DNA from: an uncultured virus (IMG/VR IMGVR_UViG_3300017763_003471)
Taxonomy: Duplodnaviria > Heunggongvirae > Uroviricota > Caudoviricetes
Direction: 5' to 3' (one strand)
DNA: 20,000 nucleotides
IMG/VR virus record: IMGVR_UViG_3300017763_003471
Span: 118,592-138,591 of that record
Shown here: in pieces, positions 12,248 to 20,000 of the stretch
How positions within the stretch are numbered: the first letter of the stretch is position 1
Layout: every line of letters begins with the position of its first letter
Translations under genes and position numbers: made by a program
Notes under the pieces: model-generated
Database searches by the model: none
Told to the model about the DNA's origin: nothing
What the model saw: the letters and a program-made list of their open reading frames with translations, nothing else

Positions 12248-12569
12248 CTGGGAAATCTCTATATAAAAAATGTTGTATTGTTGTTACGTCTACCATATGA
12301 TTAAATCCAACATGTTCTCCCTCAATGTTTTCTTCATTACGTAACACTCCTGTCATTGCATCGTCTAGTTGTTGCATGTTTTTGAATTCCATATCGATAC
12401 GAAATTCAGGTAAGTCCATAGAACGAAATCCTAATTTCATTCTTGTAAGTCTATAACTTTCCATATGTCCTAACTCTACCATTTTATCTAAAAACAATTT
12501 CATCTTTTTAGCAAAATGATAAGAATTTACTTCCTCACTATGGTCTGCGTAGATTGTATATATGTCCAT
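12222..12569 (-). CDS. DUF6614-like protein
   Basis: YRLTRMKLGF...EFRIDMEF..MQQLDDA...H pattern recalled from the family. Confidence 0.55.
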   Translation of the reverse strand: MDIYTIYADHSEEVNSYHFAKKMKLFLDKMVELGHMESYRLTRMKLGFRSMDLPEFRIDMEFKNMQQLDDAMTGVLRNEENIEGEHVGFNHMVDVTTIQHFLYRDFPDELPNKQD

Positions 12570-12994
12570 TAAATGGGTCCTAGTATCTCAAATCCTTTTA
12601 TCTGTTTCTTATAAGTATGTGCTTCGCCTAAATACAAATATTTGTAACCTTTACTTTTATATATTGCACATTCATTTCTTAAACTTTTTATACCTAAATG
12701 TAATTTAGGAGTTTTGTAATCCCAAGCAAACTGCAATGCTTCAACACTTTCATGGTCTTGTATCATAATACAACTGAATGCAACAAGTTTATCTTCTTCA
12801 TCATAATATCCAATAATATCATTTTGCAAATAATCATTATCGAACATTGGCATTACACTTTTAAAACCTTTATGTCTACAATATGTTTTATAGATTTCAT
12901 TAAGTTCAGGTATGTTTGGTTCTTTCAAAAATCTACAATTTGGTATAACAGAATAATTAGTTTGTGCTAGGTCTATTCGGGCATAAGTTGTCAT
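12569..12994 (-). CDS. Minimal aminoacyl-tRNA--protein transferase (ATE_C/Bpt-like, GNAT fold)
   Basis: YYDEEDKLVAFS, WDYKTPKLHLGIKSLRNE, GYKYLYLG...YK. Confidence 0.65.
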   Translation of the reverse strand: MTTYARIDLAQTNYSVIPNCRFLKEPNIPELNEIYKTYCRHKGFKSVMPMFDNDYLQNDIIGYYDEEDKLVAFSCIMIQDHESVEALQFAWDYKTPKLHLGIKSLRNECAIYKSKGYKYLYLGEAHTYKKQIKGFEILGPI

Positions 12995-13505: not shown

Positions 13506-13606
13506 ATCTCGCCTTTTTTGCGTTTAACCGCGGTATAGTAACCTGCACTGAAACTTACTGCTATTACAGAAATCATTGCGATTCCATGCCATAATAAAAA
13601 GTCCAT
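13502..13606 (-). CDS. Small membrane peptide (34 aa, MDFLLWHGIAMISVIAVSFSAGYYTAVKRKKGEI)
   Basis: Translated by hand; coupled to mazG (TAATG) and to the next gene; TM segment plus basic tail. Confidence 0.65.
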   Translation of the reverse strand: MDFLLWHGIAMISVIAVSFSAGYYTAVKRKKGEI

Positions 13607-14019
13607 TATAAATCTCCTTCTTTTCTATTTTCTGAATAGTAAACATCAAACTCTCCGCCTGGATATCTTGCTTTTAGTTTTTCAACATTCTCTGCCATTA
13701 CGTCATTAGGATCCAAACCCAATGCACGGCAAGAATTAACCCAATACCACATAATATCACCAAGTTCTCGTTTACAATGAAAGATAGTTTCATTATCAAG
13801 TGGTTTACCTTGAAATACACATTTCTTAACAATCTCACTGAACTCGCCTCCCTCTGATGCAATGCCGATTGCACCTGTCATAAGCAACGCCATATTGACG
13901 CCTGTTTCTTCATCAAGTTTTTTAAGAGTCGCAGTTAGTTCGTCTGTATTGCCTGACTGCTTTGATGTAACCTCTTGTACAAACTCTTTGTATTTATTTA
14001 AGTCTACCTGTTTACTCAT
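13606..14019 (-). CDS. mazG: MazG-like NTP pyrophosphohydrolase
   Basis: SEGGEFSEIVKK, RELGDIMWY, NVEKLKARYP; start at MSKQV (ATGA overlap). Confidence 0.9.
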   Translation of the reverse strand: MSKQVDLNKYKEFVQEVTSKQSGNTDELTATLKKLDEETGVNMALLMTGAIGIASEGGEFSEIVKKCVFQGKPLDNETIFHCKRELGDIMWYWVNSCRALGLDPNDVMAENVEKLKARYPGGEFDVYYSENRKEGDL

Positions 14020-14537
14020 TGTTGTTCCCTGTTCTTTATAAGTTGTTCTATATTTATTTCTTCGTATTTTTCCATTGGCTGAACAATCCATGGGTTGTCT
14101 TCCAAATATTCTACGAAATAGTCTGGTGTATATGATGAACTTCCTTTTAACCACATTGTCGCAGTTTTAATATCTTCAATGAAAAAACCTTCTGTGAATT
14201 GTAACCATTCTACACACTTCTCAAATGTTGTTCCAGAATCTGCTAAATCATCTACTAATAAAATTTTGCTACCTATGTTAGGAGTTGTTTTAGCAAGAGA
14301 ATTTCCAAAGATAATTTGTCCTCTTTGATCCTTTACTTCATCACCATGATATGATTCTACTGACATTATTGCTAATGGTACATCAAATAATCTAGCAAAA
14401 ATATCTCCTACTCTTAATCCACCTTTTGCAATACAAACTACTTGATTGAATTTGTATCCATCTTCGTGAACCATTATAGCTAATTTTTCGATTTCTTCTT
14501 CATATCTATCCCAAGATATGTGTAATTTATCGCTCAT
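14016..14537 (-). CDS. Type I phosphoribosyltransferase (Gpt/Hpt-like purine salvage)
   Basis: CIAKGGL, PRPP-binding ILLVDDLADSGTT, WIVQPME. Confidence 0.88.
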   Translation of the reverse strand: MSDKLHISWDRYEEEIEKLAIMVHEDGYKFNQVVCIAKGGLRVGDIFARLFDVPLAIMSVESYHGDEVKDQRGQIIFGNSLAKTTPNIGSKILLVDDLADSGTTFEKCVEWLQFTEGFFIEDIKTATMWLKGSSSYTPDYFVEYLEDNPWIVQPMEKYEEINIEQLIKNREQQ

Positions 14538-14569: not shown

Positions 14570-14598
14570 ATTATATACTATCGAGGTTCAGAAGTCAA
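14570..14598 (-). promoter_or_regulatory. Sigma70-type promoter overlapping the putA stop
   Basis: TTGACT-N17-TATAAT upstream of the PRTase RBS AAGGA. Confidence 0.7.
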
Positions 14599-17424
14599 TA
14601 ACAAAGTGTCTCCGCCGATAGCAGAAGTGTTGATGCTTATGTGTTTCTCCCACACATAAGGAGTTAGATAATTAGGACCACCTGCTTTAGGTCCAGTACC
14701 ACTTAAACCGTATCCACCGAATGGTTGAGTCTCTACAACTGCACCTATTTGGTCTCTGTTTATATAAATGTTACCTATCTTCATTTTCTTAGCTATGTTA
14801 TCATAGAACTTAGTTACACGTGAATGTATACTTAATGTTAGTCCAAATTTACTTTCATTTATAAAAGATACTATTTCATCTAATTCATCTTTTTCATAAA
14901 CATAAACATGCAACAATGGGCCAAATATTTCTTCATCAAAATACTTTTTGTAGTCTGTTACAAGATAAGCACTTGGTGGGATAATTAATTTTGGTAACTC
15001 TTTTCCATTACGAGATTTCGTTGCAATTAATGTTTCGTTTTCTTCAAGTACTGCAATTCTTTCTTGTATCTTTGCATATGCCACACCATCAATAACACGT
15101 GATACGTCTGTATTTAAATCATCTGCATTACCAAGTGATATTACTTTAATTTTATGTTTTAACATATTAATAATTTCTTCACTATTTTCTTTTTGAAGAA
15201 ATAAAAATCTAGTTGCTGAACATCTTTGTCCTGCACTATCGAATGCACCATATGATACATCTTCGACTAACTGTTCAGGTAAACAAGTAGAATCTGCAAT
15301 CATAGAATTTATACCACCTGTTTCTGCAATGAAAGGTATAATAGGCCCATCACGTTCAGCAATAAGCCTCTGTATAGTCTTAGCACTCTTATGAGAGCCT
15401 GTGAACGTTATACCTGATATACGTTCATCTTTGATTGCTTTAGAAGCCTCTTCAATATCAGGGTCACACATACGTAGTGCATCTATTGGTACACCAACGT
15501 GATGCATTGCACCCAATACAACTTTTGCAATTTCTAGGGTCTGTGGTGCGGGTTTTGCCAATACGGTATTTCCTGTAATCAATGCGGCTACGATTGGTCC
15601 TAAGAAAATTGCATAAGGAAAATTCCAAGGTGCTATTACCATCCAAGTTCCTCTAGGATTAAAAACTGTAGAATTATATTCACCGGTATAACCTATTTTG
15701 ATATTTTCTCCATACATTAATTCAGCTTGTTCTACGTAGTAACGAATAAAATCAACTGACTCTCTAATTTCTGCAACTGCATTTGGATATGTTTTAAAAG
15801 AATATTTTACTAATCTGTTTGCCGCAGGAATCATTTCTTCTTCTAAACTATCTGCACATGCTAGTAGAATTTTCTTTCTATGTTCAAATGTTGTATTTGC
15901 CCATTGATTTTGATAGTTGTATAAATGTTCTATACTATCTTCCACTGAAAGTAATTCTTCATCATGGTGAGGGTGAACCGCAGAGTCTAACATATAATCA
16001 ACCATAGCTGGATCAGTTAAATCATATCCTTTACTATTCTTTCTTCCAGGATATAAATCTTTCCATGACTTAAGTGATTTCTTTTTCTTTTTAACTTCTT
16101 TAAAAGGATCTACAACTTCATTTGTATGAACAAAACTAGTGTTAGCACCATTCTCTAATAAACGTCTTATTAGATATGCTAATAAATCTTTATACTCACC
16201 GACTGGTGCATATACTCTGACTTTCGTATCTCCTACTATCTGACTGAATAAACTATCACCCATTCCGTAAAGTTTCTGAAATTCATATTCTTGCTTACTA
16301 CATTTACCAACACATTGTATTGCTGAAACTGTATATGGATTATGTGTAGCATATGCAGTTTTCAATCTTTCACTATGCATCAGTTTTTTAGTACATGCTA
16401 GATAAGATATGTCTGTATTCTCTTTTCTTGTAAATACTGGATAATCTAGTCCTTCTTGTTGTGAATACTTTATCTCAGTATCCCAATATGCGCCTTTAAC
16501 AAGCCGTATAACGAGTTTGGCGCTACTATGCTCTGCTATTGTCTCTAACGTATCAATAACCCAAAAAGCACGTTTCTGATAAGCCTGTAGAGCAAATCCT
16601 ATAGTAAAATCTTTAAATTTGTATGTTTTAAGCATTTCTTCAAGTATCATAATGCTTATATCGAGCCTACGTGCCTCTTCTGCATCAATAAACATTGTAG
16701 TGTTGTTTTCTTCGCATACTCTAGCTATAGCGGCTAATTTAGGTACTAGTGTGTGTAAAACGTCTTTGTGGTTCTTTAATTCGTATCTAGGGTGTATTGC
16801 ACTAAGTTTTATAGATATGGATTCTTTTGACTTAATAGCCGCATCTAAATATCTTTCATAGTATAAATTTGCATCTTCCCAATTTGTTGCGGCCTCTCCT
16901 AGCATATCAAATGAATATGCATAACCTTTTTTCTTATTTTTTATTGCAGTTTCTATGTTGCTACCCATAACAAATAAAGTACCCATTTGTTTTACCATAG
17001 TCTTTGTCATTTCTCTTACTGCTGGCCAGCCTATTCTTCCTACTATACCTTCATATGCTGAAAGCATTTGTGCCTGAGTTAATGCAATACTGGCCGCTTT
17101 AGAATAAAAACTATTATTAGATAATTTATACCATTCTGCATTTGATAATTTATCTTTGATAAGTTTGTCTTGTGTTTCTTTGTCTGGTGTACGTAAAAGA
17201 GATTCACAAAGAGTCATAAGTGCCATGCCCTCAGGAGCACTCATATCATATGACTTCATTATATGAGTCAAATAATGTTCATCGGTAAGTTTAGATTGAA
17301 TGGTTTCTGCCTCAGCCATTACTGACCGAAGGACTTCACTAGATGCCTTAGATGCAATTAGAAGTTTTGGAACAATTTCTAATTCATCGGATCTATAATA
17401 ATCATTATGTGGATAACACTTCAT
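14578..17424 (-). CDS. putA: Bifunctional proline dehydrogenase / P5C (glutamate semialdehyde) dehydrogenase
   Basis: PRODH motifs YSFDMLGEAA, SIKLSA, IDAEE, RLVKGAYWD, ATHN, YLIRRLLENGAN; ALDH motifs PWNFP, FTGS, ETGG, GQRCSA, EEIFGP, QPFGG..LSGTGPKAGG. Confidence 0.96.
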   Translation of the reverse strand: MKCYPHNDYYRSDELEIVPKLLIASKASSEVLRSVMAEAETIQSKLTDEHYLTHIMKSYDMSAPEGMALMTLCESLLRTPDKETQDKLIKDKLSNAEWYKLSNNSFYSKAASIALTQAQMLSAYEGIVGRIGWPAVREMTKTMVKQMGTLFVMGSNIETAIKNKKKGYAYSFDMLGEAATNWEDANLYYERYLDAAIKSKESISIKLSAIHPRYELKNHKDVLHTLVPKLAAIARVCEENNTTMFIDAEEARRLDISIMILEEMLKTYKFKDFTIGFALQAYQKRAFWVIDTLETIAEHSSAKLVIRLVKGAYWDTEIKYSQQEGLDYPVFTRKENTDISYLACTKKLMHSERLKTAYATHNPYTVSAIQCVGKCSKQEYEFQKLYGMGDSLFSQIVGDTKVRVYAPVGEYKDLLAYLIRRLLENGANTSFVHTNEVVDPFKEVKKKKKSLKSWKDLYPGRKNSKGYDLTDPAMVDYMLDSAVHPHHDEELLSVEDSIEHLYNYQNQWANTTFEHRKKILLACADSLEEEMIPAANRLVKYSFKTYPNAVAEIRESVDFIRYYVEQAELMYGENIKIGYTGEYNSTVFNPRGTWMVIAPWNFPYAIFLGPIVAALITGNTVLAKPAPQTLEIAKVVLGAMHHVGVPIDALRMCDPDIEEASKAIKDERISGITFTGSHKSAKTIQRLIAERDGPIIPFIAETGGINSMIADSTCLPEQLVEDVSYGAFDSAGQRCSATRFLFLQKENSEEIINMLKHKIKVISLGNADDLNTDVSRVIDGVAYAKIQERIAVLEENETLIATKSRNGKELPKLIIPPSAYLVTDYKKYFDEEIFGPLLHVYVYEKDELDEIVSFINESKFGLTLSIHSRVTKFYDNIAKKMKIGNIYINRDQIGAVVETQPFGGYGLSGTGPKAGGPNYLTPYVWEKHISINTSAIGGDTLLLTSEPR

Positions 17425-17449
17425 ACTTTCCCTGCTTTACTTATGTATG

Positions 17450-17457
17450 TATTTATC
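17450..17457 (-). promoter_or_regulatory. T4-like late promoter candidate upstream of putA (GATAAATA)
   Basis: TAAATA core about 25 nt before the ATG. Confidence 0.5.
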
Positions 17458-17644
17458 TATCGCACTGATTAATGTTTCAGTGGGTTGCACTCAAAGTGCA
17501 ACCCTATATTCTGAATAGAAGACCTCTCTGTTACTGTTGCAATGCAAATATAACGGTTCGAACCTTTTGCACCTCATAAAGAGAAGGGACTTCGCAATAA
17601 TTCATTTTAATCGCTATTATGCGATATCAGTTGGGTTGCGATAG
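17457..17644 (-). ncRNA. Candidate multi-stem structured RNA (~190 nt), family unknown
   Basis: Terminal 8-bp complementarity CTATCGCA/TGCGATAG, several internal helices, no ORF, AATAAATA upstream at 17686-17693. Confidence 0.55.
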
Positions 17645-17723
17645 TAAACTGTAAAACAGAAAACTACTTGTATTTCCCATGCAAATATTTATTATTTTCG
17701 TAGAAATCACTTTGAAAACAAGC

Positions 17724-17758
17724 AAAAAAAGACCCGATAGTATTGCTACTACCGGGTC
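17724..17758 (-). terminator. Rho-independent terminator
   Basis: GACCCGGTAGTA-GCAA-TACTATCGGGTC-TTTTTTT (12-bp stem with one G-U, GNRA loop, U7). Confidence 0.9.
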
Positions 17759-17826
17759 AGTTGGCGAAGAGGACTAGAGAACGGTGCAGGGAGCACCGTA
17801 CTAAAGTGCAGGCAAAAAGCCTGCAT
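17724..17826 (-). ncRNA. Candidate small RNA (~100 nt): two hairpins, CU-rich linker, intrinsic terminator
   Basis: TGCAGGC-TTTTT-GCCTGCA; ACGGTGC-TCCCT-GCACCGT; terminator; GTAAATA immediately upstream. Confidence 0.7.
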
Positions 17827-19319: not shown

Positions 19320-20000
19320 TCATTTCTCTACAAATGCTTTCTCTAATACATACTCGCCTTGGACTCTATTACTTCCTTCTTCGAAACCTAATCCTTCTAA
19401 GTATTCTTTCAATTCAACATTCATTGGCATTGAGCCACATATCATAACTCTATCGTGTTCTTTATCTAATTTAGGTAATCCTAATTTATCTTGTACTTTG
19501 TTTTCATACATAGCAGTTGTTACTCTGCCTGTGTTTTCGAATTCTTCACGTGTCACTGTAGGATAAAATTTAAACTTACCTTGAGTTATTTCTCCCCATA
19601 TCTCATGTTCATTCAACCCTTCCAAAAATTCTTTATATGCAAGTTCTTTTACTGTTCTAGTTCCCCATACCAAGATTACATTATCAAAGTCTTCGTATGT
19701 TTCTATTCCCCTTACTAAACTCATAAATGGTGCAACACCAGTACCAGTAGCAAGTAGATATAAATTTCTGCCAGGTTTTAGATTTGGCATAACTAATGTA
19801 CCAACTGATTTATCATTAACAAGTATTTCGTCACCTGGTTTTATATGTTGTAATCTACTTGTTAATGGTCCATTTGGTACCTTAATTGAGAACCATTCCA
19901 TGTATTCTTCATAGTTTGGTGATGCAACTGAATATGCTCTCATAATTGGTTTATTCTTTTGTAACTTCTCTGACCAATTATCTAATCCAATCATTAAAAA
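19320..20000 (-). CDS. fpr: Ferredoxin/flavodoxin--NADP+ reductase (5'-partial)
   Basis: RAYSVAS, GPLTSRL, ATGTGVAPF, MICGS, EKAFVEK; frame is open beyond the window edge. Confidence 0.93.
   Translation of the reverse strand, partial: FLMIGLDNWSEKLQKNKPIMRAYSVASPNYEEYMEWFSIKVPNGPLTSRLQHIKPGDEILVNDKSVGTLVMPNLKPGRNLYLLATGTGVAPFMSLVRGIETYEDFDNVILVWGTRTVKELAYKEFLEGLNEHEIWGEITQGKFKFYPTVTREEFENTGRVTTAMYENKVQDKLGLPKLDKEHDRVMICGSMPMNVELKEYLEGLGFEEGSNRVQGEYVLEKAFVEK

Follow-up and report, generated by a model that had tools for sequence, protein, structure and literature searches.

A conserved four-helix RNA derived from a decayed gene upstream of putA in uncultivated marine jumbo phages

The final 20 kb of the 138.6-kb viral record IMGVR_UViG_3300017763_003471 (positions 118,592 to 138,591; this entire stretch of 20,000 nucleotides [nt] is referred to below as the window) contain, directly upstream of putA, the gene for a bifunctional enzyme of proline catabolism, a structured RNA domain of ~190 nt with a four-helix junction (helices P1 to P4) encoded on the minus strand, which is the putA-sense strand. 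This element accompanies putA in its relatives, its helices are maintained by compensatory base changes, it evolves under selective constraint, and its sequence is what is left of a gene for a 179-amino-acid (179-aa) protein that is still intact in other phage lineages. There is little doubt about the fold, its covariation, its synteny with putA, its origin from the gene, and the constraint on it. The explanation favored here, with moderate confidence, is that the non-coding remnant of this putA-associated gene constitutes a cis-acting domain of a long putA leader. For this domain we infer a transcription start at the old upstream box of the gene, action in cis, and a recognition-site role.

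A four-helix RNA that travels with putA

Searches of viral contigs with the PutA protein retrieved two relatives, L003 and L011 (PutA 75% and 64% identical, respectively), both with the fold upstream of putA. A metagenome scan with a pattern built on the two shared arms of helix P3 returned 44 loci, 25 of which were recognized as true by the covariance model R1 of the element (79-222 bits); the other 19 and one viral chance match scored 18.7 bits or less or did not match at all, and these 19 were dropped. The window, L003, L011, and the 25 true matches represent 18 distinct sequences that fall into five lineages, groups A to E. All 18 have the small-RNA-like unit described below on the upstream side of the element and PutA on its downstream side, which answers in the affirmative the question, raised in the initial annotation of this region from sequence alone, whether homologs always precede putA: the fold travels with the gene. 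Four phage records, one of them a complete 342.6-kb genome, contain a single copy of the element each according to the R1 model, and extra copies elsewhere in the genome were not found.

Minimum free energy (MFE) folds of single sequences, obtained independently of each other, give the same helices, with entirely different sequences of P1, P2, and the two parts of P4 (P4a and P4b). The P1 strands CTATCGC/GCGATAG of the window are replaced by AATCACGT/ACGTGATT in group B, by ATCACG/CGTGAT in group C, and by ACGACAAT/ATTATCGT in L011; in L023 and L033 the 3' strand reads GCGGTAG, which results in a U-G wobble. Likewise, the P2 hairpin is replaced by ACTCA/TGAGT in group B, by AGTCC/GGGCT or GGACT, and by AACTC/GAGTT in group C. 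The outer P4a helix is exchanged for CAGT(T)/(A)ACTG in group C, ATAGA/TCTAT in L011, and GAGAG/CTCTC in L047, and the sequence of P4b is wholly different from lineage to lineage. The long stem P3 follows a different rule. Its lower part, GAAG-T-CC-CT-TCTC with GAGA-GG-T-CTTC (that is, in order, GAAG, a U-U or C-U mismatch, CC/GG, a CU bulge, and UCUC/GAGA), is sequence-invariant; its tip, which in the window holds TGCAAA/TTTGCA and GGTTCGAACC, is variable. The spacing of the arms ranges from 34 to 56 nt. The junction strands J1/2, J2/3, and J4/1 differ between lineages in both sequence and length.

The pairings named in the initial annotation were all found on the minus strand. These include CTATCGC/GCGATAG, ATCGC-N6-GCGAT, GAAG (17593-17590) with CTTC (17521-17518), the 10-bp hairpin at 17504-17482, and, in the window sequence, ACTGAT/ATCAGT, CTTCTCT/AGAGAGG, and TGCAAA/TTTGCA enclosing GGTTCGAACC. 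Also present, as described there, are the duplication of GCAACCCA(A)CTGA, an upstream motif that belongs to the element (AATAAATA at 17693-17686), and a preceding terminator, which the terminator scan identified as an intrinsic-terminator-like hairpin (17758-17731) followed by T7. Some of these details are private to the lineage of the window: TGAAT/ATTCA, the ACTGAT/ATCAGT extension, GGTTCGAACC, and the duplicated segment are not conserved beyond it. The supposed T-loop-like character of GGTTCGAACC was therefore not upheld: its counterpart in groups B, C, and D is AAGTCTCGAGGC, an ordinary coding sequence from which it has diverged, so there is no conserved T-arm, and in group E it is absent. 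An ARAGORN search of the window for tRNA-like and tmRNA sequences found only the three tRNAs at 533-1066.

The folding energy exceeds that of shuffled sequences. The 237-nt span delineated initially folds at -60 kcal/mol, compared with a mean of -45.6 kcal/mol for its shuffles (z = -3.58, 1 of 200 as good), and none of 200 shuffles was as good as the 211-nt core (z = -4.35) or the corresponding sequence of L003 (z = -4.39). In Rfam (15), the window had only the 3 tRNAs at the gathering score; permissive thresholds over the element gave a best score of 22 bits versus a cutoff of 70, and the loci of 7 relatives had no matches at E <= 0.05. The proposal that this is an undescribed RNA thus agrees with Rfam for both the window and these relatives.

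Covariation was counted on an alignment fitted to the model, with partners slid by 1 to 3 columns as controls. Paired cells make up 84.0% of 764, as opposed to 40.5-46.6% in the slid controls; 25 of the 43 pairs change on both sides (9-13 when slid), and the covariation score of 0.393 compares with at most 0.10 for the controls and was reached by none of 500 shuffles. Restriction to the 16 non-coding rows gives 86.6% paired cells and double changes at 24 of 43 pairs. Of the 15 pairs of P3, 10 are constant and 4 have changed on both sides. Double changes are also seen within groups A, B, C, and E, such as C-G to A-U and A-U to G-C in P3 of group A and G-C to A-U in one P4b pair of group B, with several more in groups C and E. 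G-U cells outnumber A-C cells by 55 to 13, an excess that favors an RNA of the putA sense strand.

Conservation of the element was compared with that of the four-fold degenerate sites of putA, and in all 11 comparisons between relic lineages (those in which the gene described below is decayed) the element was the more conserved. For the window and L023, putA four-fold identity is 0.66 and element identity is 0.82-0.91; the respective values for L028 and L057 are 0.69 and 0.78-0.92. In more distant pairs, four-fold identity is 0.47 (L003 and L028) and 0.41 (L011 and L047), with P3 identities of 0.95 and 0.86. The scan with the P3 pattern was the source of groups C and D and of most variants, and only groups A, B, and E are independent of it; these three groups have identical P3 arms despite saturated putA four-fold sites (identity 0.41-0.48). 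Evolution slower than that of four-fold sites, combined with compensatory changes, shows that both the RNA fold and the sequence of the lower P3 stem are under selection.

Descent from a gene associated with putA

In group D (L019 and L031), the sequence of the element lies inside an intact open reading frame (ORF) of 179 or 178 aa (L019:1071-1610 and L031:1074-1610), the stop codon of which overlaps the putA start codon. The two ORFs differ at 27 first, 17 second, and 74 third codon positions, and this skew shows that the ORF is a real gene. Protein search detected 148 relatives at E <= 0.001, typically of ~180 aa, and gave 16 lineage-D-like clusters with identities of 68-99%. Pfam, NCBIfam, and PHROGs contain no entry that matches the family, nothing below E = 0.3 came out of a profile search of PDB sequences, and the Atlas provided a weak Coq4 lead (rank 27, score 0.88, in 14% of cluster members). 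The family core HDxxH...GRGL.QDEAFVIG.TMG is invariant. The most conserved block, ENPxSPFxLPGAIxLExHDCxHxLLGRGLLxQDEAFVIGYTMG, coincides exactly with the part retained as P3 and P4. Of 80 bacterial genome loci with a gene of this family, 13 (mostly from Cellvibrio and its relatives) have it adjacent to a full-length or contig-truncated putA, and it is therefore a putA-associated gene; it directly follows putA in Cellvibrio-type genomes and directly precedes it in these phages. The protein is a likely PutA partner. In lineage F (L067-L072), which comprises further phages, the small-RNA-like unit, the intact gene, and putA occur in that order.

In the window, the same gene is reduced to a remnant that extends from a vestigial ATG to the base before the putA start codon. 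The start-to-putA region is ~255 nt in the window lineage versus about 540 nt (255-300 nt in the relics versus a 576-nt region). In blastn, the remnant is collinear with the intact L019 gene in short blocks that keep the same order, and tblastn reads it as RSPFSL*GA..., with an in-frame stop and frame shifts; the P3 stretch is homologous to the RSPFSLPG...GRGLL codons of the intact gene. Conversely, R1 recognizes the coding sequence in L019 and L031 (128-138 bits), and lineage D retains P3, P4, and a closing helix inside the living ORF, with one synonymous compensatory change between L019 and L031 that was read by eye. A leader peptide starting at the old ATG was considered and rejected: the residual ORF has 17 codons in the window and 4, 5, 24, or 35 codons elsewhere, and the pattern missed it in 4 of the 16 relics. 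Collinear homology and a broken frame, as expected of a gene remnant, are both observed here, and neutral evolution after inactivation is not. A broken-frame remnant that still evolves more slowly than four-fold sites is best described as a gene fossil kept for its RNA fold.

In the PutA tree, groups D and F form a clade (support 96/99), as do groups A, B, and C (92/96); group E is not placed, and the outgroups are very distant. The PutA of L031 was left out of this tree. In that metagenome contig, two overlapping ORFs (1600-2035 and 1980-2451) take the place of a single putA (L031:1600-2451), which reflects either a frameshift or an assembly error. The deletion pattern of group E differs from that of groups A to C, a difference that would fit a second, independent decay that retained the same core.

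Promoter-like boxes, the upstream small-RNA-like unit, and the genomic setting

The fold is flanked by two promoter-like boxes. The 24-nt block around box 1, the old upstream box of the gene, is identical in L003, and the equivalent in the intact-gene lineages is ACTAAATATT. Box 2 (ATAAATA) has been retained in groups A, B, and C, and in D and F it is part of the coding sequence; its context and spacing match those of 8 other box-to-ORF cases (16-29 nt), and this match makes it the likely proximal promoter of putA. Among AT-rich 7-mers, ATAAATA shows the strongest enrichment within 80 nt upstream of ORFs (16 of 139 regions versus 1.7 expected, ~9-fold). It often occurs as AGATAAATA(C/G), commonly 16-29 nt before the ATG, and 19 of its 46 genome copies are located in the 11% of the genome outside ORFs. 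On these grounds, ATAAATA is a candidate late-type promoter box. The consensus box of T4-type late promoters is TATAAATA, and the two are alike in being AT-rich boxes enriched at a short distance upstream of genes. CTTGACA, too, is overrepresented upstream of ORFs (10 versus 1.3 expected), suggestive of -35 elements of the host type.

RNA libraries from two studies yielded contigs that span the element and the start of putA together. Contig X15 (16978-17633) extends from it 450 nt into putA, and contig X19 (17423-17640) represents an L020-like variant with indels in the loops.

The unit upstream of box 1 is ~100 nt long, and an 83-nt stretch of it is identical in L003. It was found in 19 distinct versions, with two-sided changes at 8 of 20 pairs and an invariant CU-rich single-stranded block, TAGTCCTCTTCGC. 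It precedes the gene or its remnant and putA in all lineages A to F, even where the gene further upstream is a different one. With stem-loops, a conserved block, and a terminator followed by a U-tract, it has the features of a small RNA with Rho-independent termination; no Rfam match was found for it. The RNA-library contigs cover its 5' part, joined to the upstream ORF. Pairing of the small-RNA seed with the putA leader was evaluated and rejected, given that the energies of the best duplexes (-13.7 to -23.9 kcal/mol) were within the shuffled range in 18 of 18 cases (15 shuffles each). An 8+4-bp match of the small RNA to UUGGCGAACGAGG was rejected as well: it is confined to groups E and D and was read as retained coding sequence (YRFGER). 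In lineage E, a 19-nt block, ATCGTTTTGGCGAACGAGG, is identical in L011 (2395-2415) and L047 even though the identity at putA four-fold sites is 0.41. This block descends from the YRFGER codons, has no counterpart in lineages A to C, and is complementary to the invariant small-RNA block over 8+4 bp with one bulge.

The viral record has an estimated completeness of 38%, and a near-identical relative is a complete 342.6-kb genome (G001) with terminal repeats. Near-identical DNA is also present in sequencing runs from several studies that are labeled marine, seawater, or viral metagenome. The source is an uncultivated marine jumbo phage with a genomic G+C content of 35%. The identity of the ORF downstream of the fold as putA, assumed from the outset, is borne out by Pfam matches to Pro_dh (E = 7e-80) and Aldedh (E = 4e-81), in addition to the PutA arm domain; no ribbon-helix-helix DNA-binding domain was among the Pfam matches of the window PutA. 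It can be noted that a full-length bifunctional PutA is carried by jumbo phages of ~342 kb. The region had no blastn match among GenBank phages, no literature was found on proline dehydrogenase in marine jumbo phages, and a search for putA as a phage auxiliary metabolic gene gave nothing relevant among the matches listed. The features of the window are collected in Table 1.

Table 1. Features of the putA region and other features of the window
Feature	Coordinates	Strand	Comment
Structured RNA domain	17457..17644	minus	Four-helix junction (P1 closing helix, P2, P3, P4); MFE z = -4.35; model R1
P1, 5' strand CTATCGC	17638..17644	minus	Partner 17457-17463
P1, 3' strand GCGATAG	17457..17463	minus	Directly abuts the second ATAAATA box
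P2 hairpin ATCGC-ATAATA-GCGAT	17610..17625	minus	
P3 long stem	17518..17593	minus	Lower part invariant, middle covarying, tip variable
P4	17476..17515	minus	P4a, TTCAG (17515-17511) with CTGAA (17480-17476), encloses P4b
P4b, 10-bp hairpin GGGTTGCACT-TTG-AGTGCAACCC	17504-17482	minus	
Whole remnant of the decayed 179-aa gene	17425..17680	minus	From vestigial ATG (17680-17678) to the base before the putA start codon
Box 1, AATAAATA	17686..17693	minus	Promoter-like; old upstream box of the gene, 5 nt before the vestigial ATG
Box 2, ATAAATA	17450..17456	minus	Context AGATAAATAC; 25 nt upstream of the putA ATG
Small-RNA-like unit	17724..17824	minus	Two hairpins, single-stranded block TAGTCCTCTTCGCCAAC, terminator hairpin 17758-17731 and T7
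putA	14578..17424	minus	948 aa; bifunctional proline dehydrogenase/1-pyrroline-5-carboxylate (P5C) dehydrogenase; Pfam Pro_dh, Aldedh, Pro_dh-DNA_bdg
Phosphoribosyltransferase	14016-14537		putA neighbor
MazG-like protein	13606-14154		putA neighbor
Protein with arginyl-tRNA-protein transferase C-terminal domain	12569-12994		putA neighbor
FNR-like NAD-binding oxidoreductase	19320-19994		putA neighbor
tRNA genes Arg-TCT, Glu-TTC, Leu-TAA	533-1066	minus	ARAGORN

Possible roles and known systems

The favored explanation starts from sister phage lineages, in which the order is small-RNA-like unit, intact gene, and putA. In the window lineage, the gene has lost its reading frame and about half its length. 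Its promoter-like box and start codon are still there, as is the part that specified the most conserved motif of the protein, now a base-paired fold. P1, P2, P4, and the middle of P3 are preserved by compensatory changes, and the lower stem of P3 is held constant in sequence. Transcription from box 1 (17693-17686) would make the fold a structured part of a long putA leader, and the fold could then act in cis on the long putA transcript, with the invariant, bulged lower stem of P3 being recognized by a protein or RNase that controls transcript stability, processing, or translation. Box 2 probably also gives rise to a short, fold-free putA transcript.

Several considerations weigh against this explanation. 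An alignment fitted to the model biases covariation counts towards structure, and the invariance of the lower P3 stem is partly built in, as the scan pattern required exactly those bases. Lineage F has the intact gene without the fold (R1 18.9 bits, E = 0.8), and because, in addition, the tree leaves group E unplaced, no order of events is claimed for the fold and the decay of the gene. The RNA-library contigs have a depth of 3.6-8.4, come from libraries that may hold DNA, and reveal neither strand nor ends; the segment 17652-17745 was covered by none of 4 RNA runs, a contig gap that proves nothing. Action in cis is deduced from position alone, and no trans-acting partner was identified. Finally, the canonical context and spacing of box 2 mean that putA may be transcribed mainly without the fold.

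The same canonical box directly after the fold would allow transcription of putA with no need for it, and is thus one of the arguments for an independent stable RNA, transcribed from box 1, that acts in trans or has a structural or decoy role and only happens to precede putA; in a variant of this idea, cleavage of read-through transcripts at the foot of P1 could set the RNA free. The element is indeed a closed domain with its own upstream box, the X19 contig covers little beyond it, and a sequence-invariant P3 stem would suit a protein-binding RNA. However, there is no terminator or other 3'-end signal after the fold, the X15 contig continues well into putA, the element is never found away from putA (18 of 18, one copy per genome), and group E has no box between the element and putA. 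On balance, such an independent RNA is unlikely. What remains of the two possibilities offered in the initial annotation, a noncoding RNA or a cis-regulatory leader with switch-like folds, is a conserved and covarying RNA directly upstream of putA, joined to the putA start by RNA-library contigs; the switch was not sustained. Sensing of proline, P5C, glutamate, or tRNA by a riboswitch or leader with two exclusive folds might be expected from a multi-helix junction upstream of a catabolic gene, and the duplicated GCAACCCA(A)CTGA does permit two folds in the window sequence. However, the alternative is not conserved across the relics: forcing the 5' strand of P4b to pair upstream costs +5.6 to +13.1 kcal/mol (about +10 kcal/mol), J1/2 is the alternative partner in only 3 of the 16 relics tested, all from group A (3 of its 5), and in L033 a C-to-A change breaks the alternative pairing with no compensating change. 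A riboswitch would combine covarying helices with a conserved junction or pocket; in this element the helices covary, the junction strands vary by lineage, and the invariant bases belong to the lower helix of P3. As for an expression platform, neither the terminator scan nor the sequence revealed a terminator or U-tract after P4b or P1, and the ribosome-binding region of putA lies at least 25 nt beyond P1, unpaired in the MFE fold, and is not sequestered. Together with the lack of an Rfam match, these observations make sensing by such a switch very unlikely, and the element is not a classical ligand-operated switch.

It is just as improbable that the element is a neutral pseudogene remnant, whose fold is left over from mRNA structure and has no present function. 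Its derivation from a shortened, frame-broken gene is demonstrated, and part of its apparent conservation comes from ascertainment by the search pattern; nevertheless, the element surpasses putA four-fold sites in every one of the relic-lineage comparisons, compensatory double changes are found both within and between lineages, and the pattern-independent groups A, B, and E share identical P3 arms at four-fold identities that are close to saturation. An element that functions as DNA, with inverted repeats that bind a regulator of the flanking promoter-like boxes or form a cruciform, is highly improbable. The P3 arms do form a conserved inverted repeat between two such boxes, but their spacing varies widely, four separate helices covary, the predominance of G-U over A-C cells is that of a one-strand RNA and not of DNA, and the Pfam matches of this PutA do not include a ribbon-helix-helix domain. 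There is also a more far-reaching version of the gene-fossil explanation, which seems doubtful at present: a functional RNA would have arisen in the most conserved part of a protein gene and outlived that gene, and it may replace the lost PutA-partner protein. The pairings in lineage D suggest, under this version, that the fold already worked inside the living ORF, which then decayed, possibly twice independently (in groups A to C and in group E), with the folded core being kept; possible binding partners of the RNA would be PutA, a proline-breakdown metabolite, or a host homolog of the protein that was lost.

These observations add an undescribed but well-supported structured RNA family and an adjoining undescribed small-RNA family to the repertoire of marine jumbo phages, which are abundant and uncultivated, and they provide an unusually clear, base-by-base record of the conversion of protein-coding sequence into a selectively maintained RNA fold. 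Since both RNAs and a widespread uncharacterized protein family are tied to putA, control of phage-borne proline catabolism becomes an addressable problem. They also call for caution, in that a decayed neighboring gene can leave behind a convincing riboswitch-like fold in front of a metabolic gene.

Among known systems, the orphan structured RNAs of the Rfam 'motif' class, which comparative genomics has uncovered in leaders from bacteria, phages, and metagenomes, resemble the element in being covarying multi-helix 5' domains that come from uncultivated sequence only and have no assigned ligand or partner. The element differs from them in having no Rfam family and in that its descent from coding sequence can be traced base by base. 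Riboswitches are found in the leaders of phage auxiliary metabolism genes, e.g., glutamine-type RNAs in cyanophages; here, too, a structured RNA precedes a phage-borne gene of amino acid metabolism, but the conserved junction or pocket, the expression platform, and the conserved alternative fold are all missing. In the control region of the enterobacterial put genes, PutA represses its own gene by binding DNA. The regulatory region lies directly upstream of putA in that system as well, whereas the phage PutA has no ribbon-helix-helix domain in Pfam, and the operator motif GTTGCA, which is contained in the P4b hairpin of the window, does not occur in groups B, C, and E, so that a PutA operator was rejected as an explanation.

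Processing stems of RNase III and stabilizing 5' leaders, exemplified by the R-sites of T7 and by ompA-type leaders, share with the element a long helix with conserved bulges and mismatches and a position in intergenic regions or leaders. They are single irregular hairpins, in contrast to the four-way junction described here, for which processing or stabilization is a candidate role. Finally, the origin of bacterial small RNAs and leaders from degraded genes or pseudogenes is a recurrent theme in the literature on small-RNA origins, and the element likewise is a noncoding RNA descended from a decayed ORF. It stands apart from those cases in that it keeps a large covarying fold derived from the most conserved motif of the protein and in that a sister lineage still carries the same pairings inside a living ORF.

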